Source of the DNA: a bacterium
Lineage (GTDB): Bacteria > UBA9089 > JASEGY01
Assembly: GCA_040753085.1 (NCBI GenBank)
Contig: JBFMHI010000003.1
Coordinates: 2,367 to 66,366, forward strand
Direction of reading: 5' to 3'
DNA length: 64,000 bases
The notes beneath the pieces were generated by a model. It did not search any database. It saw nothing but the letters and a program-made list of their open reading frames with translations, and was not told the origin of the DNA. Below, piece after piece: positions 3,798 through 47,930 of the stretch; the first letter of the stretch is position 1; each line of letters opens with the position of its first letter. The translations under genes and the position numbers were made by a program.

Positions 3798-3962
3798 GTA
3801 ACTATTCAGCTACGGATGGACACGGATGAAACACTGATGGGCAACCACAGAGGGTTGCCCCTACTTGTGTTGGGCAACCACAAGGGGTTGATGGGCAACC
3901 ACAAGGGTTGCCCCTACTATTTATCCGTGCTAATCCGTGTTAATCCGTGGCTGAATAATTAC
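3798..3962. promoter_or_regulatory. inverted-repeat-flanked module: ~30-bp imperfect IRs (ctattcagctacggatggacacggatgaaacac / gtgctaatccgtgttaatccgtggctgaataat) built of ACGGAT/ATCCGT hexamers at ~10-bp spacing, enclosing three tandem copies of the palindrome GGGCAACCACA(G/A)GGGTTGCCC
   Basis: read directly in sequence; lies between start of gene at 3374 and stop of gene at 4518. Confidence 0.6.
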
Positions 3963-4276
3963 ATTGATAATTAAAAAGGCTTATCACCTTTCCAGGATAC
4001 ACCCTCCACCTGGTGATGATAAGCCTTCTTTTTTCTGTCTTAGGTGGAAGGCGCATTCTGGATTAAATGCGAAATTCAAGCTTGTTTTTATCTTGGAGAT
4101 GCAACTTCAAAGGTAATTATGGCGCAACTTCTACTGATGAACTATGTTACATAATGTATTACGGTACGGTGGTGATAAGGCACACCTTTCCACTTGTTCA
4201 CTACACTTTGTTTATCTTATCGACCATATATTAAATAAACTTTAGAGGTTTTTCGATCTGTGGGGTTAAACTTCTT

Positions 4277-4373
4277 GTAACCGTTCAGCCACCAAGGCAC
4301 GAAGACACGAAGGGGAAATTATTGATGAATTTTGTGTCTTCGTGTCTTTGTGGCTGAACACTTACAACTTCTT
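4277..4373. repeat. MITE-like hairpin element, family TTTGTAACCGTTCAGCCAC: arms gttcagccaccaaggcacgaagacacgaag / cttcgtgtctttgtggctgaac around a ~25-nt loop
   Basis: arms are reverse complements; related copies at 10116, 20277, 43586, 47829. Confidence 0.7.
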
Positions 4374-4417
4374 TTTTTGGGGGGGGGCGATAAAGAGGCT
4401 ATAATGCTGGGGAAGAA

Positions 4418-4486
4418 AGAAACCAGGTTTCTTGAAGAAACCTGGTTTCTGTTTAACACCACCTCCGGCAGGTTTCAAACCTGCCG
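4418..4486. repeat. perfect 13-bp-stem palindrome gaaaccaggtttc-ttgaa-gaaacctggtttc followed by second hairpin ccggcaggtttcaaacctgccg; identical first palindrome recurs at 63901..63933
   Basis: exact sequence identity of 33 nt at two loci 59 kb apart; no clear U-tract so not called a terminator. Confidence 0.7.
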
Positions 4487-4517
4487 AAGGTTTAGAAGTC
4501 TCATACAGGATAGCCGC

Positions 4518-7500
4518 TTACTTCAATACGACCATCCTCCGGGTCGAAGTCACATCTCCGGCTATTAACTGGTAGAGATAAACTCCGGAGGCCACTTCAT
4601 GGCCATTGGAGTCTTTTCCATCCCAGTAAGCCGCCCGGCTCTTGCTGGTGTAGGTCCCGGCCTCAAGTTTGCCCAGGTCAAGGGTCCTGACCAATTCGCC
4701 GGAAAGGGTATAAATCTTGATGGTTACATTGGTCTCTGCCAGGAGGGCGAAAGGTATCCAGACCTCAGGATTAAGCGGGTTAGGATAGCTCTGCCTCAGC
4801 GTAGTCTTGAGCGGAACCGTGGCGGCCAGTCCCAGGTTAATGGCTGTCTCTAAGAGGGACTTCATCTCTAAGACCTTCGTGGTCTGGGGGCCGGCCTCCA
4901 GGGCAGCCAATACGGCCTTGTAGCCTTCCAGATAGAGGGAATGATCCACGCCGACCAGGCCAGCCATTGCCGGGGCAGGATAGACCCCATCGATGTGGGT
5001 ATGGGTTTTGCCCCAGTTGAGACCAACGATGAGGACATCGGCTGCCTCAACCTTACCGTTGCCATCAGCATCAGCATAAGTGGCGCTTCTGGCGGCAGTG
5101 CCGGCCTCTCCCCACCAGATTACCCGGCCGAGCTTGGCCTGGTCTTCCCAGTCAATCTTAATGGGATAGCGGGCTGGGCCGCTTGTCCCCCAGTATTGAC
5201 CGATAGGCAGGATATCGGCCGCATCAACATCGCCGTCATTGTCTGTATCACCCGGCCAGAGCGATTCAACCTCGGCCGAACAGAAATTGCCCTGAAGCTC
5301 GACCGTATCAGAGCCTGCATTGCCGGCTACATCGGTCAGGAAGGTATAAAATTTATCAGGCTTGGCATAATTCATTACAATAGTGTCGCCTACCGTCACC
5401 TCGGTAGTGGCCTCATCGATCCAGATCTTCAGGACCGCATCACCAATCCATTCGGTCTCGACCTGGCCCCAATTATGTCTGACCCCAAAGGCCGGAGTAT
5501 TATGATCAAATACGGCCAGGGCCGTCTCGATATTGATATTGGTTATGCTGGGGGAATATGTCCCAATTTCCTTCAGATTGAGCATTGGTTCGTTGAAACG
5601 GATGAGCACGTAGTCCTGTTTGCCGGCGCCTTTATCTTCGCCCCGGCTGCCGTATCCGGTGATCTGACTGGCATCTGGATCCTCGGCGGGGCTTCTAAGT
5701 AGACAACTGTTTGATCCATCGTAGGCCACGGCTTCAATAATATAAGGCGGCAGGCAGTCATACTGACCAAAGGAGCCGGTGATCTGCCGGGGGACACAGA
5801 AGGCCAGGGAATCACCCATTGAACTGACAAAGCCTTGAGTTATGGTCTGATCAGCCGGCCGTGCCCAATCACCGACCCTGGGGATATCATTCTGAGGGTG
5901 GCCGGAAAAGACCGCCACGAATTCGGTGTTAGATAGCCAATAACCGGTATCAATGGTTTCCCAGGGGTGAGTTGTGCCGTTTCCATCTTTATCGGTGTTA
6001 AGCGGGAGGCTGGCATTTAGAGCCGCGGTGAGGGTAGCGCTCGTCCAGGTAAGATCAGCCATGCCAGAGATACGGCTGTCCATAGCGGTGTTAAAGGTAA
6101 TCTTCACTGAATCACCGCTCTGCTGTCCGTCGCAATTATCCTGATCAGGCGTGGCCACAATGCTCGTGAGGCAGGGGATGGGTCTCAACCTGATCTCGCC
6201 TGCTGGCGAGTTAGGATCAAAACCAATAGGGGTATTAGTCTCGGTATATCTGGTAATGGCCGGTTTAGTCCCGGCAGGTTTAGGCCCATCAGAGAGACTA
6301 CAACTGATGTTACTGAAGGTCAGCCGGCTGACCACCACCCCGCTTGGCTTGGCGCCTTCCAGGACCTTAAACCTGACCCTGGCTATGGGATAATCAGCGT
6401 AGGTTCTACCTGTCGGGACGCCATACACATAGAGGCCATTGGCGCTTCTATCTGCCTCTTGAGTCACCGAGATAGAAACCTTCTGGGACTTTTCATCCAC
6501 CACCCAGTGAAGGATGGGGTGGATTATGCCGACCGCGGTAGGTGAATCGAGCAGATCGCCCAATTCCACCGAGACCACATCCACGAGGCTGGACTGGGTA
6601 TAATCGATGTCAAAGGCAATACCAAAAAGGATTTCAGTGTCAGCGGCCTCAACTATCGCGGGGGTATCACCGCTTTCGAGGCCGTCTAAGTAGACATAGA
6701 AGTCAGCATAACCACCCGGGGTGGTGGTGATGACCTGGTTGGTTCTGGCGTCAGCCACCCGATTGCTGGGCACATCATCAGACAGATAAAGGGTCCCCCA
6801 CGTGTTGATCGAGCCGGTATCTTGGAGGACAACCTGAATGGTGTCCATCCGGCTGATATTGATGCCGTCATAGACCTGCAGGCCAAAGGTATAAGTTCCA
6901 ATATCAGAGGCGGCGGTTGGGGCGATAAAGCGCAGCTTCTGGGAGTAAGCATCCGAGGTCCCCTCAGGACAGCAATAATCCTCGGCTGCCTGGGTTAAGG
7001 CGTCTAAGGCATAACAGCTTCCAAAGTTAGCTGCAGCCGGCTGGCTGATCAGGCTCCAGCGATAGCAGAGTCGATCAGAGTTGGGGTCGCTGGAACCGGC
7101 GCCGTCGAGGACCACATATTGTCCCAGATAAACATATTTTATTTCCTGAGTCTTGTTGTCGTCTATGTCAGCCGTGGGCGGGGTGTTAATATTGGCCAGG
7201 GCATTAGCTGTGCCGCCGTTTCCAAGCCAGGCGGGAGTCCAATTGCCAGCCGTGCCGCCCACGTTCCAGTAGGCGATGTAGTCACTGACTGTATCGCCGC
7301 GATCATAAAAGCCGGTAGTCGCTCCGGTTTTACCGTTTTCAAAACCGTCGGCATTAGAGGGATCATAGGGGCCGTCTTTGCCATAGCCGGTGCCGGACTT
7401 GGAGACACCCCACCAGTTATCCCTGGCTGGAATAACCGTGGTTTCAGTGGGGTCATCTTTTTCCATGCCGTAATCACAATTGTCCCAGATGGCACACTGG

Positions 7501-9674
7501 CTTACTGACACGGGAGCCGCCTCACAACCCTTGCCAATAAGGACACCGGTGTTATTCCGGGTGATGTAGCTGTCTGTAAGGGTGACGGTAGCATTAGCCG
7601 CGGCAATATCTATCCCATTATCAGCATATTTAATGGTTGCATCCGCAAGGGTTCCGGTAGAACCGGCTTTAAAGACGATTCCCTTCCAATTGCCACAGGA
7701 ACCATCAGTGAATCCGTCGGCATTGGAATCCCGGCCGTCGGTCACGTCGTCCTGGTAGGAGGTGAAGAGGACGGTATTGCCTGGCCAATCACTTCTCTTG
7801 ACTACCTTGGCTCCCCCAGTGATGAGGGTTCCGTTCACAATCAAGGAGAGGTTGCCCCCGGCCTTGATAACCTGCCCCGGTTTGATAGTCAGGGTGACAC
7901 CAGTGGCTACGGTCAGGTCATTACTATCAAAGATATAGGGAACCGTTGTCCCGGTCATAGTTGTATTTAAGGTGATGGTCGAATTCAGTCGGACACCGTC
8001 GTGGGTGTTGGTCAAATACCCCTCGGTCTCAGTAGACTTATGGTAGGTATTACCGCTGATGGTCCATCCGCCGATCCCATCGTCTCTTCCATCGGCCCCC
8101 ACAAAGCCGGACAGCTCGATAGGCCAGTGCTCATCGTAGATATAGTTATCGTGGATATTCTCCTGCTTGGAGTTGGAATAGATGCCGCCGTCTAAACCGT
8201 AGGTATAATAATCTACACCGCTGGAACCGTTTTCAAACCTTTGGGCGGCGGGATAGGCCTCATCCGGAAATCCACAGTTGGTGTAAATATCATCTACCGT
8301 CCCGTTGTTATCCCAGTCAAAACGGACCCGGGCATCATGGTAAGTGTCTTCATAGGTTAATGTCCCTTGCTCATCGTATACGGTGGCCTTAAGGGAATCA
8401 GGGACAGAAGAACAAATATGAGCATGGGCCTTACTGGAGTAATCACCGTTTTGATAAATAGTGCATCCGGCGACCTCTAAGAGAGTGGCATTGTCATTCT
8501 GGCTGGCATCACCGACGTTCTTGATGCCCCAATCCCAGTTGCCATAGATCTCACAGTCGGTTACCTTGACTGCCCCGGCCGAGGTAGCGATCCGGACACC
8601 ATCCAGCCGATTATAGCGGACAATTGATTTATCCAGGATGAAGGTTTTGCCGGCGCCGGGGATAACTCCCTTTACCAGGATACCGAAGCCAAAGCTGTAC
8701 TGCAAAGTAACATTATCAATGACCGGCTCAGAGGAATCAACCACGATCATACCAATAGCCAGGTCATCCAGAGCAGATATTTCGGTTTCACCCAGGGCAT
8801 CGGCATCGTCGCCGTATAGTCCGCCATACTCGAGGGTGGCATAGCGGATGGTCCCGCCAGAACCAGGCTCAAAAAGGATAGACCGCCAGTCTCCGCGATC
8901 AGGTATGGCCGTGCTCTGGCCCTTAGAGGTAAAGGTGATCTTCTTGGTAGCTGTTCCGGCGGCGGTGAGGGTTGCCCCGGACTTAACGGTAATGCCGAGT
9001 TGATAGGCCAGTCTGGATTTATTATCCGGCACAAAGACCACTGTAACACCAGGCTTAATGGTCAGGGTATTGCCTGAAGCAATTTCAATTCCACCCTCCA
9101 CGATGTAAGGGCTGCCCTTTTCTTCCCAGGTAGCAAGAACACTGTGCCCCAGAGTGTCGGCGCCAACTACTCCATCCTGCATGTGGTAGCTGGGGGCATT
9201 AGGATACTGATCATCCCAGACCCGGTTAACATAGGTCCCCTTAGTGACCACAATGGCTTGGGTGCCGGCGGTGTAACCGAGGTCAGGGGTTTCATCGGCC
9301 GTAATTTGGATGGCCATCCCGGCGGTTGCATCACGGTAGTAAAAGGTGGCTGAATTCTGGCCGACACCGATGGTCACCGAGGTCACGGCCTTAAAGCCTT
9401 CGGCTGTCTCGTCAATGGAAAACTCCGCCTTTCCAGTCGAGTTGGAAGCCAGGTTAATGGTCACCGGAGCCGCCGCCGCTTCCGGCTCACCATACTTGTT
9501 CTGAAGCTGGATAGTAATCGGGCCGGAAATCATATTGGTTGACACGGCTTGCATGTCACTGGTAAAGACGATCTTAGAGATAGCCGCCTCCGCTGCTTCG
9601 GTCCCGATGGCCAACGTAAACACTGGGAGAAGAGCCATTAATACGCTTCCCCATCTTTTCTTCGTTTCCTTCAT
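4518..9674 (-). CDS. giant secreted surface protein (1718 aa): N-terminal signal peptide, right-handed parallel beta-helix (PbH1) blocks, two dockerin-like Ca-binding repeats, C-terminal T9SS sorting domain
   Basis: ATG with AGGAGG RBS; MKETKKRWGSVLMALLPVFTLAIGTEAAEA; dockerin-like LWPGDTDNDGDVDAADILPIGQYWG and YADADGNGKVEAADVLIVGLNWG; C-term SYPNPLNPEVWIPF...GVYLYQL...RRMVVLK fits TIGR04183 Por_Secre_tail. Confidence 0.9.
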   Translation of the reverse strand: MKETKKRWGSVLMALLPVFTLAIGTEAAEAAISKIVFTSDMQAVSTNMISGPITIQLQNKYGEPEAAAAPVTINLASNSTGKAEFSIDETAEGFKAVTSVTIGVGQNSATFYYRDATAGMAIQITADETPDLGYTAGTQAIVVTKGTYVNRVWDDQYPNAPSYHMQDGVVGADTLGHSVLATWEEKGSPYIVEGGIEIASGNTLTIKPGVTVVFVPDNKSRLAYQLGITVKSGATLTAAGTATKKITFTSKGQSTAIPDRGDWRSILFEPGSGGTIRYATLEYGGLYGDDADALGETEISALDDLAIGMIVVDSSEPVIDNVTLQYSFGFGILVKGVIPGAGKTFILDKSIVRYNRLDGVRIATSAGAVKVTDCEIYGNWDWGIKNVGDASQNDNATLLEVAGCTIYQNGDYSSKAHAHICSSVPDSLKATVYDEQGTLTYEDTYHDARVRFDWDNNGTVDDIYTNCGFPDEAYPAAQRFENGSSGVDYYTYGLDGGIYSNSKQENIHDNYIYDEHWPIELSGFVGADGRDDGIGGWTISGNTYHKSTETEGYLTNTHDGVRLNSTITLNTTMTGTTVPYIFDSNDLTVATGVTLTIKPGQVIKAGGNLSLIVNGTLITGGAKVVKRSDWPGNTVLFTSYQDDVTDGRDSNADGFTDGSCGNWKGIVFKAGSTGTLADATIKYADNGIDIAAANATVTLTDSYITRNNTGVLIGKGCEAAPVSVSQCAIWDNCDYGMEKDDPTETTVIPARDNWWGVSKSGTGYGKDGPYDPSNADGFENGKTGATTGFYDRGDTVSDYIAYWNVGGTAGNWTPAWLGNGGTANALANINTPPTADIDDNKTQEIKYVYLGQYVVLDGAGSSDPNSDRLCYRWSLISQPAAANFGSCYALDALTQAAEDYCCPEGTSDAYSQKLRFIAPTAASDIGTYTFGLQVYDGINISRMDTIQVVLQDTGSINTWGTLYLSDDVPSNRVADARTNQVITTTPGGYADFYVYLDGLESGDTPAIVEAADTEILFGIAFDIDYTQSSLVDVVSVELGDLLDSPTAVGIIHPILHWVVDEKSQKVSISVTQEADRSANGLYVYGVPTGRTYADYPIARVRFKVLEGAKPSGVVVSRLTFSNISCSLSDGPKPAGTKPAITRYTETNTPIGFDPNSPAGEIRLRPIPCLTSIVATPDQDNCDGQQSGDSVKITFNTAMDSRISGMADLTWTSATLTAALNASLPLNTDKDGNGTTHPWETIDTGYWLSNTEFVAVFSGHPQNDIPRVGDWARPADQTITQGFVSSMGDSLAFCVPRQITGSFGQYDCLPPYIIEAVAYDGSNSCLLRSPAEDPDASQITGYGSRGEDKGAGKQDYVLIRFNEPMLNLKEIGTYSPSITNINIETALAVFDHNTPAFGVRHNWGQVETEWIGDAVLKIWIDEATTEVTVGDTIVMNYAKPDKFYTFLTDVAGNAGSDTVELQGNFCSAEVESLWPGDTDNDGDVDAADILPIGQYWGTSGPARYPIKIDWEDQAKLGRVIWWGEAGTAARSATYADADGNGKVEAADVLIVGLNWGKTHTHIDGVYPAPAMAGLVGVDHSLYLEGYKAVLAALEAGPQTTKVLEMKSLLETAINLGLAATVPLKTTLRQSYPNPLNPEVWIPFALLAETNVTIKIYTLSGELVRTLDLGKLEAGTYTSKSRAAYWDGKDSNGHEVASGVYLYQLIAGDVTSTRRMVVLK

Positions 9675-9810
9675 TTAAAAACCTCCTTGTTTGATTTTTC
9701 GTAACTATTCTTGCCGAATCCTCCCCTTCCCTTCCTGTTGGGGGAGATCATATCCAGTAATCGTTACGGCGGTATCATCTGCCTCATCTCTCTGGCCTCC
9801 TTTCTCTAAG

Positions 9811-10035
9811 GTAACCGTTCAGGTATAGCTGCACGGATTAGCACGGATAAATAACACAGGACAGAAGGCGGAAGTGTAGGGACAGGGCTTGTCCCTGTCC
9901 GTGCTTGTCCATGTCCGTTCCGTAGACGGACAACCACAAGGGTTGTCCCTACAGCCTAAGGACAGACCCTAATCACGGACACGGCTCACGGATTCTCCGT
10001 GTTTCATCTGTGTGCATCTGTGGCTGAACGGTTAC
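9811..10035. promoter_or_regulatory. module flanked by perfect 12-bp IR gtaaccgttcag/ctgaacggttac containing ACGGAT repeats at ~10-bp spacing and the palindrome GGACAACCACAAGGGTTGTCC (compensatory variant of GGGCAACCACAAGGGTTGCCC at 3841-3925)
   Basis: read directly; located between stop of gene 10298..20065 and start of gene 4518..9674. Confidence 0.6.
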
Positions 10036-10115
10036 TCTCTGAGAAATAACTGCCATAGGGTATCAGGTAATGGGTGATCACCGATTACCGATTACCTGAG
10101 TAGTTACTTCAAAAC

Positions 10116-10296
10116 GTAACCGTTCAGCCACAAAGCCACTAAGGCACGAAGAGAATAATGAAATAGCCCACGGATGACACAGATTTTGGCGAATTCTCAC
10201 GGATTTTTTCTAATAAATTTTTATCCGTGTCAATCCGTTTCATCCGTGCAATCCGTATGCTATTATTTGTAATCTTTGTGCCTTAGTAGCTGAACG
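10116..10296. repeat. MITE-like element of the GTAACCGTTCAGCCAC family whose arms (gttcagccacaaagccactaaggcacgaag / ctttgtgccttagtagctgaac) bracket an array of four ATCCGT direct repeats spaced 10-11 bp (ttATCCGTgtcaATCCGTttcATCCGTgcaATCCGTatgc); right arm ends 2 nt before the stop codon of the 3255-aa gene
   Basis: read directly. Confidence 0.65.
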
Positions 10297-10297
10297 C

Positions 10298-13200
10298 TTA
10301 CTTCAAAACTATCATCTTCCTGGCGCCGGTGAAAGACCCGGCTTGGAGCTGGTAAAAATAGATGCCACTGGACACCTCTTCTCCGCTCTCATCTCGGCCA
10401 TCCCAGTAAGCCGCCCGATCCCGGCTTAGATAGCTGCCGGGCGGCAACTTGCCGGCATTGATGGCCTTGACCAATTGACCGGCTAAATTGTAAATGAATA
10501 TAGTTGTTTCAGCCTCCTCAGCCAGCCGAAATGGTATCCAGACCTCCGGATTAAAAGGATTAGGATAATTTTGGAGGAGCTGGCTCCTGGCCGGAACCTG
10601 ATTGGCCAGGGCCAGTTGGATATATTCGGCCAGGACCTCTGTCAGCTCGGTATAAGGCGTATCTTTAAGGACTTCATACATCGCCCGCAGAGGTTCAAGG
10701 TCCAATGGCTGAATGCTCACTTCTGACTGCTGACCCCTGATTTCTGACATCTGACTGCCGGCTTTTGTCTGCTGAGTCTTGTGCCAATTCATCCCAATAG
10801 GCAATATGTCTCTGGCATCAACTATCCCATCGCCATTAGCATCAGCATAAGCGGCCAGGGTAACTTTCCAGGAGGCGGCCGGTTGGGGAGTCCAATTGGA
10901 GGAAGCCGTCTCTCTGGGCGGCCCCTGAGTTTTCCAATACAGGCCAATAGGCAGCACATCCCTGGCATCGACCAGACGGTCATTATTGGTATCTCCCGGC
11001 CAGACCAGAACCTGGGAGACACTGCCTTCCTTGATGATAATCTCACTGCTGGTCGGGAGCAAGGAAATAGACCTATCCAAAGAATCCCTGGCTATTATAT
11101 TTGAGAACACCAGGGTTATTCTTGTCCCGGACGCCAGCCCTTCGGCTATTCTGAAGATCACTTTGGCTATTGATTGGCCTGGTTCGAAGCCGGATACCCC
11201 TTTTGAATGGAGGCCCTTTTTTCTGGAAAGACCTATTTCTATCCGGCCTTGACCCTTTTCAGACTCAAAGAAGACCAGTTTCCCAGGATCAATATCGAGA
11301 AATGGACCGGGACTAACTTCCAATACTTCAACGGCCTCAGAAGGAAAGGCAGAGATTTCAAACACCAGGCCAAAAAGGTCGGATACGGGATGTTGTCTAT
11401 CCCCAACTTCGACTTCCACCTCAAACTCTTCCCGGCTCACCTTGGTGTAAGTTGGTTGATCCCACCTCAATTCCACTTGTGACGAGACTAACGCCTTTAC
11501 TTTAACCGTGGAGGGGGCGGAGAAATATCCAGCGGCATTGGCCACTACTAACTGGAAGATATATTCCCCTGGCTCTTGAGGGGTAAATTTAGGTTGAACC
11601 ACGTTCTCCAGAATGATCCTCTCTGGTCCGGCTGCCTGGGTCCAGAAGTAACTAAGCTGTTCCCCCTCAGGGTCGTAACTGGCTCCGGCATCAAGGATGA
11701 CTAAGGTCTTGACCCCGGTAGTAATGTCTGGTCCGGCTTCGGCAATAGGACTATGCAGGTCTTTGGCCCAGGGGGCATAATCCACGAAATCGCTTACCCT
11801 GTCTCCTGTTCCGGCCGGATTATAAAGCGGTCTGACCGTCGAATCATCTTTAGGTCCTGTTCCAGCGCCCCAATAGTTGCTTTCAGCCTCGATAGTGTAG
11901 GACTCATCCTGATTGAGAAGGCCGAACTCAAGGTTGTCGGTAATTTCACACCCCTTAAGGCGAAGTATCTTTTCCCTGGCTCCAGGATAAGACCGGGGGA
12001 AATCTCTAAAAAGGAGACCAATCCGGTTATTGGTTATCCTGGCCCGGTCAATTTGGATAGAAGCCCCCTTTATTCCTTCTATCCCGATAGTATTTTCCAA
12101 GATATGACAATCCCGGATAATCGGATCCCTCAAGGTGGCCGTAACACCTGCCGCCGCGTATCGAATCCGGCAGTAGCTCAACTCGAGGTCCTCTGGCGGG
12201 GACGTAACTTGGACCGCCACTACATTCTTGCCCTCTCTCAGGTAAGAACCAAGCTGATAGGTTTCTCCTGGATTAAAGGTTATTAGGGAGTCCTCATTTT
12301 TAGCTATTAATTGTCCATTGACGTAGACTTCATAATCGGTCACCGCCGAGATATGCAAGGGGGCCGTGATTTGCCGCGAGATAAGTTTATCTTCACTATT
12401 TCTGAGGGGGGGCGGATCAATAAAGATCTCCTGGCGATAATACCTCTCTCCCCCCGCCTCTATGGCAGGTTTCAGCCAATGGGCTTCTGTTTCAGGGAGC
12501 CAGTCCTTTGGGTCTCTGGGTTGGTCACCGCGGTCAACGGCGGCAGTTTTCCACCCGGAATCATCAAAGTCAACCTGCATCCAATCTGACGGGGCTGCCT
12601 CGCCTTCTAATCTTTTCCAGGAGGCATCGGTGATTACACTCATTTCTCGGTAAAGATGGTAGGTCTCCTCCTTACCCTCACAGCATTCTCCTTCAGACTT
12701 CAATCCCCTGACTGTGAAAGATTCCTGAATAGGCAAGTCTACCAGAAGGGACTGCTTAATTTCCAACTCCACAAAGTGAAGGCCGCTCCAATCACCGGCC
12801 CGGGGGGTAGTGGCCTCACTATCCCCGTTGCTATCTCCACCAAATTCATCATCCTTGAAAGAGGTGAAGGTAATGAGCCTATCGGCTGTTCCGTTGGCCT
12901 TGAGCCTTCCATTGATAGTCAAGGCCCCGGCGCTTTTAAGGATCACCCCAGGGCTGATCCTCCAGGTAGAATCCTCGCCCACCTTCAAGCCGTCCGCCAG
13001 ATAAAAAGGCGCCCCATCCTCTTCCCAGATTACCTCTTCCTTCCCGGTAATATCGCCGCAGATCTTGATGGCATTGTATTGGTTGCCGAATATCTCGTTG
13101 TCCGTAATCAGATAGGCCTTGTTGGCGGTAATGCCGATGGCATAGTTGCGGTTATGGTTAATCAGGTTGTTTCTGATAATAGGCTCGGCTTCCTCCCCAC

Positions 13201-16200
13201 AGAAGGTGGCGATGGTGCCGGCTATATAGCCGGTCAGATCATCGGTGTAGGTATAATCATCGTCTGGTGAGTAGGAATCATTGTAAGTCAGATGGTTCCA
13301 TTCAATCAGGGGATCAGAGTCCTCTCTCACGGCCACCGCCCGATAGGCGTTGTAAGCGATCTTGTTGTTGGTGATGGTCGGGGAGGCATTGTGCAGCTCA
13401 ATCCCGTCCTTAGAATAGAGGATAATCGCCCGGTTGATGATGGAGTCATCTAAGGATGAATCCCAAAAGAGGATTCCCTGCCAATCACCGTTATCCGCTG
13501 TTCGGCCGTGTGATGCCCCATCACAATTAATATCTCCGCCAAATTCATCATCAAAGCAGGAGGTAAAAACGAGGTAGTTGGCAGTCCAATCATCCGGCTG
13601 GACCGATTTCGGAGGGTCAATAATATAGAAGGCGTGGAGGCTACCCTCTGGGTCAGCATCAGCTATCAGCCTTCCTCTGACCTCCAGACCGGCCCCTTCG
13701 GACTTGGGTTTGGTTTCATCGAACTTGACCACCACGCCCGGGTTGACCGTCAAGGTAACGCCTTCTTCCACGATAACCCGCTGGACAAAATAGGGCGCTA
13801 AGTCATTATAGTTCCAACTGGTGCCGGCCACGGTGTAGTTGGCATACCAGACCGTATCCGTGCAGTGGTTAGCCGCATCGATCCAGACGGCATTATGGTT
13901 ATTGCCCTTGATCAGGTTGTCCTTGATGATGTAACCGCCCACACAGTCGCCCAGTCGGTGCTGTCCTTTAATGACGGCCCAACCGTCATTGTCCTGGATG
14001 AGGTTGTCGGTAATGGTCTCAGAGGCGGTGGCGGTGGAGTAGATACCGCCGCCGGCTCCGTCTTCATCGGTTGGTCTGAGTCCATTGTCGTGAATATTAC
14101 AGTCAGTCACCACCAGGTCAGTGTGGTTACCCACGTAGTAGTTACCCTCATTAAGGATGCCCCAGCGACCGTTTCTGGCCAATTCACAGTTATCAATAGT
14201 GATGGTGCCGTCATCTATCTTGAAGTTGGCTCCATCTAACCGGTTGTCGCTGAATTCAGAATTGGTGAGGGTCGGGTTCATCGGGAGGGTCGGATCATTA
14301 GTCATATCGGCTGTCCTGGGACCGCTGTAGAGTATCCCGGCGGCGGCCGAATTAGTGCTCCTGATATGATCGATGACCACATCAGTGCCATAGACCTCGA
14401 TATTGCCCCGGTGATACTCACCTAAGCTGTCATCATACCAGCCACCGTAGCTGATATCCGCATAACTGATAATCGAATCTTGAGCGGTCTCTTCAAATTT
14501 GATCCTGGTCCAATCCCCGGCCTTAGGGTGATATACCTGGCCGTCCGGTTGGGTCCAGGTGCTGAAGGTGACACGCCGTTCCGGGATGGTGCCTTCCGCA
14601 GACGGCGCCCTCCCGGCCGCCTTTAAGGTTCCCTGAACGATCAGCTCAGGCGGCTGATTAGGATTGGTCAGGGTGGAGAATGGCCTGAAGAGGACCTCAA
14701 CGCCCGGCTCAATGGTCAGGCTCACGCCGGGCCAAACCTTAACCAGGTCTTCGATAATGTAAGGAGAACCGGATATGTCCCAGACCACATCATCTACATA
14801 TATCCGGTCATCATAAGGCGGTTGATCGTCCATGAGGCGGTTGACATAGGTGGCTGACTTTCTAACCGACCAGGCGCTGGTGAATTCGGACCGGTTGCCG
14901 CCGCAGTCAACAGCCGCTACTCGCCAGTAGTAGATTTCACCCATAATCATCGCCTGCTCATAGGGCAGGGCATACTTTACCGTGGAAGAGCCTTGACCTT
15001 CGACCTCGACGTTTACCTCAGGTGATGAGAAATCGGAATCCCGGTCCATCTGGAAGAGATAGTGAGTCGCATCCGAGACGGTTGTCCACTCAAAGGTGGG
15101 GGTCGAATCAGTCACCGGGGTTGGGGCCTGATCATTGACTACCTGACTCACCCTGGCCGGGTAGATCAGGGTCGGCCTAGCCGGCGACTGGAGGTCAACC
15201 TCAAATCTGTTGGGGGTGCTCCATTTGGTGGAATTAGTCGCCCGATCAAAGGCCTTGACCCGCCAGTAGTAGACACCTTCAGGAAAGGCGTTCAAACCAG
15301 CCAGAGCCCCGTCAAACCGGCCGCCGAACTGGCCATTGTAGGCCTGATAGTCGGCTTCGGTGATGTTGAATCGGCCGTCGCCATCCTGATCAATCGGCCA
15401 GCGGGTGTTGGCGATATTCTGAAGGCTGGGAACCCCGTTGGTCCTAAATTCCAAGAGCGGCTCAAAGGGCAGCTCGCTGATGTTTATCTCTAACGGATCA
15501 GAGAACTCGATATTGTCGCTTACCTGTAAGGTGTAAACGATGGGAGCCGAAGGATCACCCATCGGATCCCAGTCAAAGATGGGGGTGGTATCATTGACGC
15601 ACTGACCGTCCGCCGGCGTAACCAGTCTTACTGAGCTGCAACTCACATAACAATTGTTAATATCAGTATCGATGTGGATTTCCCAGACATCGGCAGACCA
15701 ACCGGTCTGGCCGCAACGGTTACCGGCCTCATCCACCCCGCCGACTCTCCAATAGTAGGTGCCGTCTCTCAGGGCCACGGTCGGCACATAGCTGGAGACC
15801 TTGGTCCATTCATTTACCTCGGGTGAGGAGAAGTCGATGTTGTTGTCAACCTGAATATTATAGGTGATCTTGTCTATGCTCGGCCCGGTGCCCTCATCCT
15901 CGTAGGCTGACCCCTCATCCGACCAGTCAAAGAAGGGGGTGTCATCATTGGTATAGGTGCCGTCATCCGGTGAAACCAGGCTCGGACATGAATCTACGTG
16001 CGGATCGATCCTGATCGCCCGGATCTCTGACCAGGTGGACTCATTCTCGGCACAGTCAATGGCCGTCACCCGCCAGTAGAAGGTCCGGCCGGCCCCGATA
16101 CTGGGCAGAATAGTCGGCGTAAAGGTCATCCGGCCGTCTAAGACCTGGAACATCTCCGGATGATACACATCGTGAGGGTCTCTGGGATCATTGGAATAAT

Positions 16201-19200
16201 CCACCGTCTGATTAAAGACATCTCCGCTATTATCGCCATTGTTCAGGTTGTCATCCACCTCGATCTGGATAAGATAGTAAACTGTATCGCAGTAATCTGA
16301 GTTAATGAAGTTGCCTGACAGCTCTGAGGAGTGGTAGGTCTTGGAATCAACCACCCGCTCCCAGGTCATCGTGGGGGTAATATCGTTGGTGGTATGCCAA
16401 TCTGCCGGTGAGATCAGATTAGGGGCGTCTGGGGCCGTGGTGTCAATGGTGAATCTCCGGTAGGGACTGGTATGGCTCCACTCGGAGATGTTGCCGGCAC
16501 AGTCCATCGCCCGGACTCGCCAATAATAGGTCCCCTCCGGCAGGACCGGCGTGACCGTCATTTGACTGCCGTGGATATAACCGGTCGTGCTGCCGTCTAA
16601 GGGGTTATCTCCGCCTACCAATTGCGACTCAAAGTCGTTTATGTCCAGAATAGGTGAAGAGAAATCAGCGTCATCATCGATCTGGAGCTGATACCTCAGG
16701 TCGTAAGCCTCCGGCTCATCCCAGTCTAAGGTTGGGGTGTCGTCATTGAAGATGATGGCGTCATCCGGTGAGGAATAGTTGGGCATATCCGGCGGCGTCA
16801 GGTCCACGGTAAAGGCCATCATATTCCCGCCGTTGCTTCTGTTGCCCGCCTCGTCCACGGCCATGACCCGCCAGTAGTAGTGCCCTTCCTTCAGCTCATA
16901 AGCCGGCGGCAGGGTATACTCGGACCCGGTCAGACCGGAGACAGAGACGTCCGGGTCGATAAAATCCGGATCCCCGGCATCTTTGGCCTTGACCAGCTCG
17001 AAGATGTAAGACAGCGTCCGTTGCTGGGTGTCGGTATCCTCCCAATAGAAGGTCGGCCTGGTTCGGCTGAAGGGCCGGCTGAGCGCTCCGCCGGTGCCTG
17101 AAAAGACGCTGGGTGAGATATCCGGCTCCACCGCATATCCCTCATCCTGGTAACTGACACAGCCAAAAGGCGCCAGGAGGGTTGGATCAGACGGTTCTCC
17201 CATCTCAGGATTGAAGCTCCAGACCTGGCTGGCGCACTGGTTGCCGGCCTTATCGTAGGCCGTTACCCGCCAGTAATAGATTACTCGGTTATCCATGGCC
17301 TCGGCATTAGCTGTTTGATAGCTGGAGACCGGTGGTGTTCCGGTGTTCCACTGATCAATAACCAGGGGAGCCGTAAAGCTTGATTCGGTATCAATCTGAA
17401 TATTGTAGCTGATAATATTGGGGTCGGTCACATCGGCCCAATCAAATAACGGGGTGGTATCGGCCAGGGCGATCCCGTGGGAGGGAAAAAGCAACTCCGG
17501 TGTACAGGGTGGGATCGTATCGATGACAAAGACCTGGGCCTTCCAGGGTGAGTAGTTGCCCGCACAGTCTCTGGCCCTCACTCGCCAGATATAGCTGCCA
17601 TCTGGCAGGGCCGCCGTATAAGTCGGCTGGGATAGCTCGGTAACGTCAACTACGAGTAAGACCCAGCCTGTCTCCGTTGGCGCAATCTGTAGGTCATAGC
17701 GAAGCTCCTCGCCGTGGCTGATCACCCAGGCTACAGTTTCAGGTGGATTGCCGTCCTCGGTACTGGTGAGATATGTAGCCGCCGTAGCACTCCAATCCAC
17801 CCAGGCCGTCTGAGAAAGGGTATCTCCTTCATTCCAGATAAAGATTGGGGTCGGATCGGGCTCATAGTCGCCATCATCCAGGGTATCAGACAGGTCCTGG
17901 GGAGTGGTCGGCGCTTTGGTGTCCACGATAAAGGCAAAGGAGTCAGACCAGGTATTACCGGCATCATCGGTTACCTGCAGCTCCCACCAATAAAAATCTC
18001 CATCGGTGTCCGAATCCTCCAGACAGACAGTGGTGATAAAGCTATGCGCCGTCCCACCGCCGCCGACAGCCACCCACCCATTAGCATCACTATTAGGCAG
18101 ATTAACCACGTTGGCGCTATCATAGACGCCCAGATTTCTATTGACGATTCGAACTTGATAGGTCACGGCTGGCGGTTCATCCAGACCGTTGGAACTGGCG
18201 CCGTAAGGCGGCAGGTCAATCCACTTTAAGATTGGGGTGCAGTCATTGATATGGAACTGCTGGCTGCAGAACTCTGAGTCAGCCCCGGGATAGATCAGTC
18301 TGGCCACCGGTGCCGTGGTATCCACCGTAAAGTAGCAGACTTCACTCCAGTTGCCTACTACCTCGTTACAGGTAGGATCCAGGGCCCTTACCCGCCAGAA
18401 CCAGATGCCGTCCGGCAAGGTGGCCCCGGTCCAGGCCGTCGTCCGGTCGGAAAGCCAAGCTACCTGATTGCCGTTGGCATCCTGACCATTGCTGAAATTA
18501 AAGCTGCTAACTTCTGATGGCGCCGCCGCATTAACATTACCATTTCTGATCCAGAGGTCATACTCCACATCTTCTGAATCAGCAATCGAGAAAGATCCGT
18601 CATGATCGAGCTGGACTTCATACCACAGGTCGCTGGGCTGACTCCCTGAAGGATCAGCCACCTCGGTCCAGGTGAAGGTAGGCGCACCCGTATTGATCCG
18701 GTCTCCTCCATTAGTGCCGGTGGTGGTGCAGGCACCTGGTGACTGGACGATAGGCACCTCAGGTGGCACACAGTCTTCCAGGTCTATCACCACTTTCCAC
18801 TTGACACTCCAGTTAGTGGAGTCTGCCCAGGAGTCATCGTTAACGGACATAATCCGCCACCAGTAGGTCCCTTCCGGGAGGCGACCGTCGTTAAGGGTGC
18901 TGGAGACGTCGGGGCTCAGGACATCGTAGACTAAGGTCGGATAGGTATCCCCAATAGTAAAACACGTCCTGGTGCCGGGTATCCGGGCCTGAATGAGGAG
19001 ATTGGTGGAATCCCACGTTCCGGTATCTACCCCCCACCCCTCTCCATCATTTTGATCTTCAAAGTTATCATTGTTGAACCAGGCAAACTGGAAGATGTAG
19101 CTATCTCCGGCTTCACTTCCACCCGTGTTGCCAACGCCTCCAGTGATGCCATCAAGGACGCTCTCGTAAGGAATCCCTGGCCTGGGGTCCCAGCAGAAGG

Positions 19201-20276: not shown

Positions 20277-20322
20277 GTAACCGTTCAGCCACCTTTGTGT
20301 CTTGGTGTCTTTGTGGCTGAAC
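20277..20322. repeat. hairpin copy of the GTAACCGTTCAGCCAC family (gtaaccgttcagccacctttgtgtcttggtgtctttgtggctgaac)
   Basis: 10-bp perfect stem gttcagccac/gtggctgaac plus extended imperfect pairing. Confidence 0.7.
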
Positions 20323-20371
20323 ACTTACGTCATATTTACCGCCGGGACGGCTGCGCTGCTTACGAACAAAC

Positions 20372-25748: not shown

Positions 25749-27176
25749 TCATCCTTTGATCACGCCCATGGGTTTGAGCCTGGACACCAGACGGCCAATG
25801 CCGGCCCCATCAGTTACTTCAGCTACATCTTCGATATCCTTATACACCCCCGGTGCTTCCTCGGCAATTCCCTTCAGAGAGCCGCCTTTAACATAAATCT
25901 TCTCTTTTTCTAAATCTTCTTTGACCTGACTTCCCCTGAATTTTTTCAGGGCCGCGTGTCTGGAAAGGAGCCGGCCGGCCCCATGCGGGGTGCTGGCGAA
26001 GGTCTCAGCCGCGGCCTTATCGGTTCCAACTAAGAGATAAGAGGCAGTGCCCATACTACCCGGCAGGAGGATAGGCTGGCCGACTTTCTTATAAGCTTCG
26101 GGCACCTCCGGATGTCCCGGGCCAAAGGCCCTGGTAGCCCCCTTGCGATGGACATAGACAGACTTGCGCACACCATCAACTTCGTGTTCTTCCAGTTTGG
26201 CGATGTTGTGGGCCACATCGTAAACCATCCTTAGTTTAAGCCCCCCTCCAAAGACCTCCTGAAAGGCCTTACGAACATTGAAGGCAATAAGCTGGCGGTT
26301 CACCCAACCAAAGTTGGCCGCGGCACTCATAGCGGCGAAATAGTCTTCCGCCAGTTTTGTCCCCAGCGGGGCATAGATCAGTTCCCGATCAGGCAGAGTC
26401 GAAAGGAGATGCGAAAACTCGTCTTCCATTCGTCTCAAATAATCAGTGCAGACCTGATGACCTAATCCCCTGGAACCAGAATGAATCATCACCATTATCT
26501 GGTTTTGGTGCTCAATACCAAAGACCCGGGCAATGCCGGGATCATATATCTTATCCACATATTGCACCTCAATGAAATGATTCCCTGCCCCCAGGGTGCC
26601 TATCTGGTTCTTCCCCCGCTGTTTGGCTTTATTGGAAACCCTGTCCGCCCTGGCGCTCTGCATTGAACCGCCCTCTTCACAATGAGCCAGGTCTTCCTCA
26701 GTAGCATAACCGCGTTTTAAGGCCCATTTTGTTCCGGTATTTAAAAGCTCGTCCAGTTCGGCCTCCCTTATCCTTAGACCTGATTTCGAACCTACCCCCA
26801 CGGGAACATTTCTAAAAATGGCCTCAAGCAACTCCCTGATTTTAGACTCAACCTTGTCTTTACTTAGAGGAGTGGACAAAAGCCTTACCCCGCAATTAAT
26901 ATCGTATCCGATTCCCCCTGGTGAAATACAGCCTTCCTTCGCATCAAAGGCAGCCACACCACCAATAGGGAAGCCGTATCCCTGATGGGCATCAGGCATC
27001 ATAATGGACTGTTTCTGGATGCCTGGCAGCACAGCCACACTGGCCCCCTGCTGCAAGGCGTTGTCTTCCATTAGCTGGGGAAGCATCTTCTCTGAGGCAA
27101 ATAGCTTTAGCGGCACCTTCATCTGGCCGGTTGGTTCTACCATAAAGGTATATTGATCGATCTTCTTTGGCTTCAT
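25749..27176 (-). CDS. rtcB: RNA-splicing ligase RtcB (3'-phosphate/5'-hydroxyl RNA ligase)
   Basis: start taken at MKPKKIDQYTF (GAGGAGGAG RBS 4 nt upstream; ORF-track TTG extension to 27197 unlikely); motifs GYDINCGVR, HSGSRGLGHQVCTDY, NHF. Confidence 0.92.
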   Translation of the reverse strand: MKPKKIDQYTFMVEPTGQMKVPLKLFASEKMLPQLMEDNALQQGASVAVLPGIQKQSIMMPDAHQGYGFPIGGVAAFDAKEGCISPGGIGYDINCGVRLLSTPLSKDKVESKIRELLEAIFRNVPVGVGSKSGLRIREAELDELLNTGTKWALKRGYATEEDLAHCEEGGSMQSARADRVSNKAKQRGKNQIGTLGAGNHFIEVQYVDKIYDPGIARVFGIEHQNQIMVMIHSGSRGLGHQVCTDYLRRMEDEFSHLLSTLPDRELIYAPLGTKLAEDYFAAMSAAANFGWVNRQLIAFNVRKAFQEVFGGGLKLRMVYDVAHNIAKLEEHEVDGVRKSVYVHRKGATRAFGPGHPEVPEAYKKVGQPILLPGSMGTASYLLVGTDKAAAETFASTPHGAGRLLSRHAALKKFRGSQVKEDLEKEKIYVKGGSLKGIAEEAPGVYKDIEDVAEVTDGAGIGRLVSRLKPMGVIKG

Positions 27177-27198
27177 TTTTCTCCTCCTCTCTGGCAAT

Positions 27199-43585: not shown

Positions 43586-43990
43586 ATTTGTAATCGTTCA
43601 CCACAGAGACACGGAGACACGGAGAATGATTTCGACCTGTATGATTAGAAATTACAAACAATGGGTTGAAATCTTTCCTACGCCCTGTCAGGGCTTGACC
43701 TTATGGGATACCATTATTCCGTAGATTGAAATCTACGGCTAAATTCCTTTACGCCTTCGGCGTATAAATAGGATATATTAATAAAACCTGTTCCCTGATT
43801 TTCATCAGGGCAAGTTCTGACAGAACCTGCTCCTGACAGGCTCTGAAGTTCAGGAATCATTATTAAAGCCCGAAGGGCTGTAGTATATGTTAGCCGTAGG
43901 TTTGAACCTACGGAACATTAAATGGGAAATTAATTAAGCCCCGCAGGGGCGAAGGAGAAAATACAGAGGTGAACGGTTACGATTATATCA
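43586..43990. repeat. non-coding block: single-arm copy of the GTAA(C/T)CGTTCACC element (gtaatcgttcaccacagagacacggagacacggagaatgatt, 43586..43631) followed by ~9 unrelated short stem-loops (gccctgtcagggc, ccgtagattgaaatctacgg, tacgccttcggcgta, ccctgattttcatcaggg, gcccgaagggc, ccgtaggtttgaacctacgg, gccccgcaggggc)
   Basis: read directly; left boundary of the high-GC islet. Confidence 0.6.
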
Positions 43991-47824: not shown

Positions 47825-47828
47825 TTTG

Positions 47829-47930
47829 TAACCGTTCACCTCACCACGGAGACACAGAGACACTGAGAAAAATCTAAAATCATTCTCCGTGTCTCTGTGT
47901 CTCTGTGGTGAACGATTACCTTTTCTGAAG
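47829..47930. repeat. full hairpin copy of the GTAACCGTTCACC element: gtaaccgttcacctcaccacggagacacagagacac - loop - tctccgtgtctctgtgtctctgtggtgaacgattac
   Basis: ~38-bp arms, internal GAGACAC repeats; right boundary of the islet. Confidence 0.7.

Follow-up and report, generated by a model that had tools for sequence, protein, structure and literature searches.

The window, a 64-kb stretch of bacterial DNA, carries giant genes for large secreted or surface proteins with T9SS-type C-terminal domains, and the spacers between these genes contain arrays of the hexamer ACGGAT (ATCCGT on the opposite strand) set between inverted repeats. The question raised by this arrangement is whether the modules are control elements or switches that serve the giant genes, as the original prediction had it. 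They are best explained as ordinary mobile-DNA insertions and not as dedicated switches for the giant genes. In the reading favoured here, to which a probability of roughly 0.85 is assigned, the modules are MITEs, small transposons of the non-autonomous kind, that have IS66-type ends and are flanked by target duplications of 8 bp; REP-like hairpins lie inside two of them.

Both the arrays and their inverted-repeat flanks are real features of the sequence. Over the window as a whole the number of ACGGAT copies is not unusual (37, versus 28.3 +/- 5.6 in shuffles), and the signal therefore lies in their clustering, with 16 of the 37 concentrated in three short stretches. Copies are found at 3812 and 3822 on the forward strand, at 3923, 3933 and 3943 on the reverse strand, at 9833, 9843, 9988, 10170 and 10199 on the forward strand, and at 10223, 10233, 10242 and 10251 on the reverse strand; the array that had been quoted, ttATCCGTgtcaATCCGTttcATCCGTgcaATCCGT, was found at 10221-10256. 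Three pairs of inverted-repeat arms could be located, at 3788-3827/3933-3972 (40 nt, 85%), at 9811-9834/10012-10035, and at 10116-10143/10274-10301.

Each module is bounded by a terminal inverted repeat (TIR) of 13-16 nt with the consensus GTAAC(C/T)(G/A)TTCAGC(C)AC. Individual ends read GTAAGCGTTCAGC, GTAACCGTTCAGC or GTAAGTGTTCAGC, and their start fits the IS66 inverted-repeat form GTAAGCG / GTAA…. The end motif has 29 matches in the window against 5.6 +/- 2.3 expected, with approximately 22 copies lying in intergenic DNA over the full 64 kb, a distribution that speaks against modules devoted to the giant genes. Seven paired elements of 52-391 bp, all non-coding, can be recognised. Three of the seven have perfect target-site duplications of 8-9 bp and one has a 7/8 match, while in three (MITE 1, 3798-3962, and those at 43590 and 47828) no duplication could be recognised. 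The anatomy consists of short tandem subterminal repeats that adjoin the terminal repeat and are mirrored on both arms, with the 8-bp target duplication outside, and all window elements fold as long hairpins (z of -6 to -12). No Rfam family was matched in or near the modules.

The ACGGAT arrays are the subterminal tandem repeats of one subfamily of these MITEs. The unit is CACGGATnnn in the modules considered here, whereas CACnAAGn, CACrGAGA, GGTAATC and CTGAAGG are found in other subfamilies, where the periods are 7-8 nt. The spacing that had been noted is present within the arrays (10, 10, 10, 10, 9 and 9 nt), but its interpretation as helical phasing was rejected, since the 7-8-nt periods of the sister subfamilies show the 10-bp period to be the length of the unit.

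In the first spacer, MITE 1 (3798..3962, 165 bp, CACGGAT subfamily) has the ends GTAACTATTCAGC / GCTGAATAATTAC and arms of 40 nt that are 85% complementary, with two (C)ACGGAT units in the left arm (3812..3827, forward strand) and three CACGGAT units in the right arm (3923..3948, reverse strand), both with a period of 10. It lacks a clean target duplication, and folds as a single long hairpin (MFE -82.6, z -11.6). MITE 2 (4277..4365, 89 bp) belongs to the CACNAAG subfamily, with a period of 8, and is bounded by the perfect 8-bp duplication AACTTCTT (4269-4276 and 4366-4373). In the second spacer, MITE 3 (9811..10035, 225 bp) is of the CACGGAT / CACAGAT subfamily, and its duplication is a 7/8 match (TCTCTAAG at 9803-9810, TCTCTGAG at 10036-10043). 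Beyond it lies a remnant of a third subfamily (10059..10107) with GGTAATC arrays of period 7, of which the right end CCTGAGTAGTTAC (10095-10107) alone is kept.

MITE 4 measures 186 bp (10116..10301). Its outer arrays are of the CACNAAG type, its ends are GTAACCGTTCAGC / GCTGAACGCTTAC, and it is bounded by the perfect 8-bp duplication TTCAAAAC (10108-10115 and 10302-10309). Nested within it is an inner CACGGAT/ATCCGT palindrome (10166..10258) that holds the quoted array. The TAA stop codon of the 3255-aa gene (10298..10300, reverse strand), read directly from the sequence, falls within MITE 4, in its right end (G-TAA-GCG). When MITE 4 and one copy of the duplication are deleted in silico, …GTTTTGAAGTAACTACTCAGG is restored and the reading frame again ends V-L-K-stop; MITE 4 would thus appear to supply the stop codon of this gene while leaving the end of the protein unchanged.

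The remaining elements lie further along the window. Upstream of the 3255-aa gene lies MITE 5 (20277..20328, 52 bp), with the perfect target duplication GTCATATTT, also written as GTCATATT(T). A 391-bp element at 43590..43980, with ends GTAATCGTTCACC and arrays CACGGAGA, belongs to the same superfamily. Downstream of ftsZ is a 92-bp MITE with CACRGAGA arrays of period 8 (47828..47919), and the ftsA-ftsZ spacer contains a GGTAATC-type element (49410..49509).

The palindromes within the modules are a second repeat that is separable from the MITE, namely REP-like hairpins that bear a GTAG tag and have a stem of 8 bp closed by the loop CTTGT. The first palindrome, GGGCAACCACAAGGGTTGCCC, had been described as three tandem copies. 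Three copies can be found, but only one is exact (3893-3913), the others being one base longer or truncated. The second, GGACAACCACAAGGGTTGTCC, is exact at 9928-9948 as predicted, and no exact occurrence of either would be expected by chance. In MITE 1, all units are on the reverse strand: a hairpin at 3837..3864 with the GTAG tag, a GGGCAACC/GGTTGCCC stem and a loop one base longer (the palindrome copy at 3839-3860, CACAGAGGG, has one additional base); a truncated, degenerate copy at 3872..3892 (…GGGGTTGAT); and a hairpin at 3891..3917 of the form GTAG-GGGCAACC-CTTGT-GGTTGCCC, which includes the exact 21-mer. These form a head-to-tail trimer. In MITE 3, hairpin A (9876..9902, forward strand; GTAG-GGACAGGG-CTTGT-CCCTGTCC) and hairpin B (9926..9952, reverse strand; including GGACAACCACAAGGGTTGTCC) form a head-to-head dimer whose GTAG tags face outwards. 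Trimer and dimer each occupy the middle of a CACGGAT-type MITE. The window thus contains five REP-like units, all inside two MITEs and four of them hairpin-forming, with a weak candidate also at 23778; REPs typically have a high copy number in their host genome and lie mostly outside genes. The statement that the modules enclose 21-nt palindromes applies to two of the three, as the centre of the inner palindrome at 10166-10258 is AT-rich and lacks any REP hairpin; the CACGGAT palindrome is therefore present in the window both with and without a REP.

The paired change between the two palindromes (G3>A / C19>T) is as claimed, and the proposal that such changes reflect selection for a stem is borne out by pair counts in metagenomes and by covariation. 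Where two positions were left free in the metagenome scan, the pairs recovered were G..C (124), A..T (8), G..T (2) and A..C (1). Among 36 distinct family members, with six out-of-register sequences left out of the alignment, stem positions are paired in 97.9% of cells and double compensatory changes are found at 6 of 8 pairs, as against 0 of 500 shuffles. The palindrome is present in more than 120 metagenome contigs of 30-73% GC. It is followed by (C)TAC, or GTAG on the other strand, in 113 of 135 copies, and 65 of the 135 have a GTAG-hairpin partner upstream. The unit of hairpin A is the partner of a GGACAACC unit in five metagenome loci (L121, L161, L166, L211 and L226). A RAYT-like gene overlaps the palindrome or lies within 210 nt of it in 19 of 120 metagenome loci, with no such gene in the window; the gene scores 29.2 bits against Pfam Y1_Tnp, above the cut-off, and 55.7 bits against NCBIfam REP_Tyr_transpos, below the 80-bit cut-off. 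Hairpins with a GTAG tag would be of the kind acted on as single-stranded DNA by REP-associated Y1 (RAYT) transposases. None of the 135 metagenome copies has ACGGAT arrays or GTAAC ends nearby, which argues that palindrome and MITE are two repeats that can be separated, as opposed to parts of a single designed unit.

One side observation is that a single REP hairpin sequence is found over genomes of 30-73% GC, often in frame within RAYT-like genes.

The assignment of the MITE ends to IS66 rests on transposase-bearing elements elsewhere. The inverted repeats of IS66 begin GTAAGCG and are approximately 20-30 bp in length, with 8-bp direct repeats (PMC11946415). In one locus (L078) a 16-mer identical to the end sequence lies approximately 100 nt upstream of an ORF that matches Pfam DDE_Tnp_IS66 (8e-17), with one end only. 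In two further loci (L275 and L276) an annotated IS66 family transposase is flanked by both ends and by 8-bp duplications, and the ends match the 16-mer at 14/16 and 13/16 positions. These are complete IS66-family elements in finished plasmids: one of 2067 bp has the ends GTAACCGTTTAGCCCC and the duplication CGCCGGCC, and the other, of 1676 bp, has the ends GTAATCGTTTAGCCCC and the duplication GTCGAGCT. Within 120 genome loci, a search for full-length autonomous copies, with paired TIRs at a distance of 0.7-5 kb, gave nothing convincing beyond the one-ended L078. As originally stated, there is no recombinase gene in the 64-kb window by Pfam searches of 29 ORFs, and tblastn with RAYT-like and IS66-family queries was likewise negative. 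With neither an IS66-family transposase nor a RAYT gene found in the window, the enzymes that mobilise these repeats are putative: a DDE transposase of the IS66 family, with its gene at another place in the genome, would move the elements in trans, recognising the ends and making an 8-bp staggered cut, and the subterminal arrays may be extra binding sites or products of slippage.

Comparison with relatives shows the elements to be variable in place. Two relatives (L272 and L273) have an FtsZ that is 91-93% identical to that of the window. The element in the ftsA-ftsZ spacer is present in L273 and absent in L272; downstream of ftsZ, at about the position of the 92-bp MITE, an element of a different subfamily is present in L273, whereas L272 lacks one. 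Contigs of such relatives also break inside the MITE repeats. Further afield, the exact 16-mer GTAACCGTTCAGCCAC bounds elements of 37-284 nt in many contigs from Nitrospinae, Omnitrophica, Poribacteria, Chloroflexota and other MAGs. Among 29 pairs bounded by this 16-mer in other genomes, the flanking duplication is 8/8 in 13 and 7/8 in 4. The CACGGAT subfamily, by contrast, was found in no other sequence covered (0 arrays in 1.8 Mb of fetched loci, and 0 viral contigs with the TIR plus CACGGAT pattern), which counts somewhat against the MITE reading. Matches to the end 16-mer in viral contigs were irrelevant coding sequences only, and a literature search with the exact end and palindrome sequences returned unrelated primer matches or nothing.

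For the giant genes themselves, the homologues in two relatives (L241 and L242; 71-72% identity) have a conserved leader of approximately 120 nt and conserved 3' hairpins. No modules or arrays were found flanking these homologues, although gene order differs in L241 and L242, which makes the MITE-free flanks indirect evidence only. Immediately 3' of the 1718-aa gene are two hairpins (4417..4491, reverse strand) outside any MITE; they are kept downstream of its homologues, and hence are probably the 3' signals of that gene itself. This gene also has a GTAAGCG after its stop codon, which was considered as a possible old MITE end but is not claimed as one, being kept in homologues and a weak match beyond 7 nt. 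Promoter- and terminator-like sites in the modules are at chance level (a sigma-70-type scan gave 2 and 0 sites versus 1.8 and 1.1 expected, with a consensus that may not be that of this lineage), and a promoter/terminator reading was rejected on these grounds. Effects of the MITEs on the giant genes are probably incidental. Transcripts that read through an element would include very stable hairpins, which could bring transcription to an end or make the mRNA more stable.

A tempting alternative is that a site-specific recombinase flips the segments between the inverted repeats and so turns the giant surface-protein genes on or off. Their position between genes for large secreted or surface proteins with T9SS-type C-terminal domains, together with the end of MITE 3 lying 136 nt upstream of the start of the 1718-aa gene, fits such switches, and invertons such as fimS-type switches and Bacteroides promoters are likewise short segments bounded by inverted repeats near surface-protein genes. 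Invertons lack target duplications, keep their position, contain a promoter and depend on a recombinase encoded nearby, a description that the window elements do not appear to fit. The inverted repeats equal IS66-family ends, and beside them are 8-bp direct duplications, which inversion systems do not make and which are the mark of transposition. Copies also lie at the 3' ends of genes, one over a stop codon; relatives vary by presence or absence and not by orientation; promoter-like sites are at chance level; and the only related Pfam match among the 29 scanned ORFs is a housekeeping RuvC. Moreover, the elements are near-palindromic, so that inversion would change little. Such switching is extremely improbable. 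MITEs are in general sometimes exapted as regulatory elements, Correia elements being an example, and the CACGGAT repeats and palindromes could be sites for a host transcription factor acting on the giant genes, with the MITE ends coincidental or exapted. The 9-10-bp spacing and the strong clustering in two spacers fit this proposal, but sister subfamilies have unrelated units with 7-8-nt periods at the equivalent positions, the homologous giant genes keep their leader and 3' hairpins and no such arrays, and one array-bearing module is 3' of a gene and nested in another MITE. In addition, the 1.8 Mb of fetched loci contain no such arrays. Regulatory sites of this sort are very improbable.

A further possibility is that the elements are mobilised by a Y1 enzyme of the RAYT or TIRYT type in place of an IS66 DDE transposase, the TIR and REP being one repeat derived from a REPtron or TIRtron. 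Single-stranded DNA transposition by HUH/Y1 enzymes, as in IS200/IS605, makes no 8-bp target duplications, whereas these are the rule here; the ends also match those of elements bearing an IS66-family transposase, and 0 of 135 REP copies elsewhere are bounded by these TIRs. In its favour are the REP-like hairpins within two elements, and PMC3733652 describes RAYT-type genes flanked by long TIRs and TIR families of moderate abundance. On balance, Y1 mobilisation is very improbable, and IS66-type MITEs with separable REP-like hairpins remain the preferred reading.

A side observation on these MITEs is that their termini are conserved across phyla, whereas the mirrored subterminal arrays are hypervariable. 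A broader and rather doubtful proposal is that the elements belong to an undescribed, cross-phylum "foldback" MITE superfamily, with identical 16-mers in Nitrospinae, Omnitrophica, Poribacteria, Chloroflexota, Desulfobacterota and this Desantisbacteria-related lineage, arms made of hypervariable mirrored tandem arrays, and single-stranded hairpin tips that may be preferred landing sites for REP hairpins mobilised by RAYTs. If true, this would be a two-layer arrangement of parasite upon parasite.

The practical outcome is that a tempting false lead is removed, the elements not being phase-variation switches for the giant surface proteins. In the annotation of MAGs from candidate phyla, GTAACCGTTCAGCCAC ends with an 8-bp duplication provide a recognisable signature that accounts for spurious small ORFs, for breaks in contigs and for long spacers that look "structured". 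Neither the conservation of termini across phyla nor the wide spread of the REP alters a major open question.

Among known systems, the closest to the window MITEs are IS66-derived MITEs of the single-ORF group (with the Ca. Thiodictyon pTs485 and M. alcaliphilum 20Z plasmid elements). Shared features are the GTAA(C/G)CG start, the 8-bp target duplication, the lack of an ORF, many copies, and presence or absence between strains, and the window ends are identical at 13-16 of 16 positions to those of transposase-bearing IS66-family elements. Unlike the autonomous IS66-family copies examined, the window MITEs have subfamily-specific tandem arrays of 6-10-nt units on their arms, and the family spans several candidate phyla, with no paper found that quotes its end sequence. 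The Foldback (FB) elements of Drosophila likewise have long inverted arms, in which short tandem subrepeats adjoin conserved termini, but they belong to eukaryotes, are far longer and have another transposase and other termini, and the likeness is architectural only.

For the hairpins, the counterpart is the GTAG REPs and their RAYTs (Nunvar 2010; Ton-Hoang 2012; Di Nocera 2013, PMC3733652). In PMC3733652 the superfamily is defined by a GTAG tag left unpaired at one foot of a GC-rich stem of 6-13 bp that closes a short loop, and the window palindromes agree in the unpaired tag, in the stem (GC-rich, 8 bp) and in the short loop. Complementary stem sub-variants, head-to-head dimers, head-to-tail clusters and, in metagenomes, association with RAYT-like genes are also shared. 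In contrast to REPs with their usual species- or genus-level range, the window 21-mer is found in contigs of 30-73% GC, many metagenome copies are in frame inside a RAYT-like gene, and the window hairpins lie only inside MITEs. The nearest parallel to this nesting is Anabaena variabilis, where GTAG-15 REP dimers are central in longer inverted repeats, that is, nested in long palindromes (PMC3733652). The outer palindrome in the window differs in being a TIR transposon with target duplications, and is present here in a REP-free form (10166-10258) for which no counterpart was found in Anabaena.

The two spacers that hold the modules separate three tandem minus-strand genes, namely a 3255-aa gene (10298..20065), a 1718-aa gene (4518..9674), and a paralogue that starts at 3374 and continues past the window edge. 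The products of both complete giant genes are beta-helix, Ig-like and dockerin proteins whose C-terminal domains are of the T9SS type. This is chromosomal DNA: the window holds the dcw cluster, ftsA/ftsZ, murJ, hisG, ruvC and the RNase P RNA. The closest named FtsZ relatives, at ~60% identity, belong to Candidatus Desantisbacteria.

The modules are IS66-type MITEs, two of them with GTAG REP-like hairpins. Each is delimited by GTAAC(C/T)(G/A)TTCAGC and its reverse complement, a motif matched 29 times in the window versus 5.6 +/- 2.3 times in shuffles; a slightly looser pattern finds ~22 intergenic ends spread over the whole window. Seven clear end pairs can be identified (3798-3962, 4277-4365, 9811-10035, 10116-10301, 20277-20328, 43590-43980 and 47828-47919). 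Perfect direct duplications (AACTTCTT, TTCAAAAC and GTCATATT(T)) flank three of these pairs, and a duplication matching at 7 of 8 positions (TCTCTAAG / TCTCTGAG) flanks a fourth. All paired elements fold as a single long hairpin (z of -6 to -12). Such features make up MITE anatomy. The 391-bp element at 43590-43980 has the family ends and a long interior dense with short GC-rich hairpins (for instance, GCCCGAAGGGC, CCGTAGGTTTGAACCTACGG and CCCCGCAGGGG), and may be a composite or cargo-carrying member.

The same ends are found in other genomes. When the exact 16-mer GTAACCGTTCAGCCAC was scanned against one genome per species, the matches listed comprised many chance singletons plus contig clusters from single MAGs, including Nitrospinae RIFCSPLOWO2_12_FULL_45_22, Omnitrophica RIFCSPLOWO2_12_FULL_50_11, a Poribacteria, a Chloroflexota and a Lachnospiraceae MAG, and "bacterium Yes70-08". 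In the clustered MAGs the 16-mer and its inverse lie 37-284 nt apart in at least 29 pairs; among the 29 listed, 8-bp flanking duplications are perfect in 13 and match at 7 of 8 positions in four, and several share the CACnAAGnCAC subterminal pattern of the window elements. In a Chromatiaceae MAG (locus L078), the identical 16-mer lies ~100 nt upstream of an ORF matching Pfam DDE_Tnp_IS66 (8e-17). With the L078 protein as query against finished plasmids, two complete IS66-family elements were recovered, one of 2067 bp on pTs485 of Ca. Thiodictyon syntrophicum (ends GTAACCGTTTAGCCCC, duplication CGCCGGCC) and one of 1676 bp on a plasmid of Methylotuvimicrobium alcaliphilum 20Z (ends GTAATCGTTTAGCCCC, duplication GTCGAGCT). 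No IS66-family transposase was found within the 64-kb window, and we therefore infer mobilisation in trans in this genome. In seven Actinoplanes genomes (loci L051, L058, L077, L092, L111, L112 and L115), GTAACCGTTCAGCCAC is followed by ~45 nt of conserved sequence (AGTCCGGCACCGGTCCTGGAAAGGCCGTG…), which may represent a further IS66-type end or a non-coding element under conservation.

The original prediction regarded the modules as control elements, and possibly as invertible switches, with ACGGAT hexamers spaced one helical turn apart. The arrays themselves were essentially correctly described, the quoted one lying at 10221-10256: three short modules hold 16 of the window's 37 ACGGAT hexamers, at a spacing of 9-10 nt and with the two arms oppositely oriented. 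Each subfamily has its own short tandem unit adjoining the conserved end and mirrored on both arms, which in the window is CACGGATnnn (period 9-10), CACnAAGn (period 8), CACrGAGA (period 8), GGTAATC (period 7) or CTGAAGG (period 7), and in relatives GAAATTG, GGTAGCA, GCAGTG or GGTCTCA. Thus, the 10-nt spacing reflects how long the repeat unit of one subfamily is, rather than a general design for helical phasing. Neither the 1.8 Mb of fetched loci nor viral contigs yielded CACGGAT arrays; the arrays may serve as additional transposase-binding sites or may have arisen by slippage. In relatives, GAAATTG, GGTAGCA, GCAGTG, GGTCTCA and CACCAAGACAC adjoin the same TIR core (L274 at 3183, 9966, 11621 and 13589; L010 at 2100-2235; L273 at ~1470-1583; L272 at 1426-1531), the termini being constant and the arms hypervariable and mirrored.

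The transposon ends with target duplications and the distribution of the elements likewise leave the control-module and inverton reading unsupported. The window was aligned with three FtsZ relatives, L272 and L273 (FtsZ 91-93% identical) and L274 (79%; same MAG as Yes70-08). In the ftsA-ftsZ spacer, a GGTAATC-type element (49410-49509) is shared by the window and L273 and absent from L272, and a CACCAAGACAC-type element is present in L272 and L273 and absent from the window. The 3' side of ftsZ carries a CACRGAGA-type MITE in the window; in L273 a MITE of the GGTCTCA type lies at roughly this position, and L272 lacks one. The relatives' short contigs begin or stop within these repeats. The giant-gene homologues L241 and L242 (71-72% identity) keep a ~120-nt leader aligning with window 3375-3500 and the two hairpins of window 4417-4491, and TIR elements and ACGGAT arrays are absent from their flanks. 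The conserved part is therefore an ordinary leader plus 3' hairpins, not the modules.

L274 encodes an IS91-family Y2 transposase (12269-13336, minus strand; Zn_Tnp_IS91, Y2_Tnp) ~1.1 kb downstream of ftsZ, and the window has nothing comparable at the corresponding place. Rfam group II intron domain V/VI matches at 25312-25388 and 27295-27430 (both minus; 58.8 and 41.4 bits, above the gathering threshold) bracket an RtcB RNA-ligase ORF (25749..27197, minus). No reverse-transcriptase or maturase ORF of at least 90 aa lies within 23700-29100, and the matches are possibly ORF-less introns, remnants, or an intron carrying rtcB.

In the 3255-aa gene, the MITE at 10116-10301 covers the stop codon and the third base of the AAG codon before it, its end GTAAGCG giving …AAG TAA. 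Removing this MITE and one duplication copy from the sequence yields …GTTTTGAAGTAACTACTCAGG, again V-L-K-stop, with the stop now supplied by an older remnant's end (10095-10107); as judged from this reconstruction, the insertion would leave the protein unchanged. At the stop of the 1718-aa gene and its homologues, the arrangement is …CTGAAG TAA GC(G/A)… (window 4516-4530; L241 5385-5395; L242 5383-5392), and this GTAAGC string, resembling the first bases of an IS66-type end, may be coincidental or the relic of an ancient end. A distance of 136 nt separates the MITE at 9811-10035 from the start of the 1718-aa gene downstream of it. The MITE at 3798-3962 lies well beyond the conserved leader, ~420 nt upstream of where the next gene starts. 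Promoter- and terminator-like sites match no more often than chance. A regulatory effect is possible, for instance termination or stabilisation by hairpins in read-through RNA.

The 21-nt palindromes are repeats of another kind, separable from the arrays and ends. An exact copy of GGGCAACCACAAGGGTTGCCC lies at 3893-3913. GGACAACCACAAGGGTTGTCC has its exact copy at 9928-9948, with 0 matches expected by chance at up to 3 mismatches. The three tandem copies of GGGCAACCACAAGGGTTGCCC originally described are present, only one being exact, as that at 3839-3860 has one extra base and that at 3872-3892 is truncated. The two palindromes differ by a G>A change paired with a C>T change, as predicted. A metagenome scan with GGRCAACCACAAGGGTTGYCC found the palindrome in at least 120 contigs (at least 135 copies; GC 30 to 73%). 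Among the 135 listed copies, 113 have (C)TAC directly on their 3' side, the unit reading GTAG + GGGCAACC-CTTGT-GGTTGCCC on the opposite strand; 65 have a second GTAG hairpin at most 80 nt upstream with tags outward; and none has ACGGAT arrays or GTAAC ends nearby. Watson-Crick pairing holds at the free R/Y positions in 132 of the 135. Of the stem cells in 36 distinct family members, 97.9% are paired (38-57% in slid controls), and six of eight stem pairs show double changes, a number reached in 0 of 500 shuffles, and the earlier inference of selection on a stem was right.

In the window, REP-like hairpins occur only within the two CACGGAT-type MITEs, as a trimer arranged head to tail (3837-3917) and a dimer arranged head to head (9876-9952). 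In the latter, GGACAGGG is partnered with GGACAACC, a pairing identical in metagenome loci L121, L161, L166, L211 and L226. The third ACGGAT module (10166-10258) lacks the 21-nt palindrome, and because this REP-free CACGGAT palindrome exists, entry of REPs into MITE centres is slightly favoured over carriage from a founder copy. A RAYT-like Y1 transposase (RAYT, REP-associated Y1 transposase) is encoded at 19 of the 120 listed loci, with the hairpin inside the gene in 14 and within 210 nt in the other five; the protein scores above the Pfam Y1_Tnp cut-off and, at 55.7 bits, under the 80-bit cut-off of NCBIfam REP_Tyr_transpos. The in-gene GTAG units are in frame, between the HUH motif and the C-terminal Tyr region, at loci including L233 (3902-4819), L205, L164, L176, L180, L223, L236 and L237, and encode, for instance, …VGAPLVGA…GATTRVAPT…, at times in several tandem copies.

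Of modest interest, the termini are conserved and the mirrored arrays hypervariable across phyla, and a single REP sequence occurs in widely differing genomes and lies within RAYT-like genes. Both repeat kinds are already known, and these copies are new members. IS66 has 20-30-bp IRs beginning GTAAGCG and 8-bp direct repeats (PMC11946415); three window ends read GTAAGCG or GTAAGTG, and the window end matches the plasmid elements at 14/16 (pTs485) and 13/16 (20Z plasmid) positions. The definition of GTAG-tagged REPs in PMC3733652 comprises an unpaired GTAG, a stem of 6-13 bp, sub-variants with complementary changes and HH, HT or TT dimers. The window and metagenome palindromes conform to this definition, and the account of Anabaena variabilis given there includes REP dimers nested within longer palindromes (PMC3733652).
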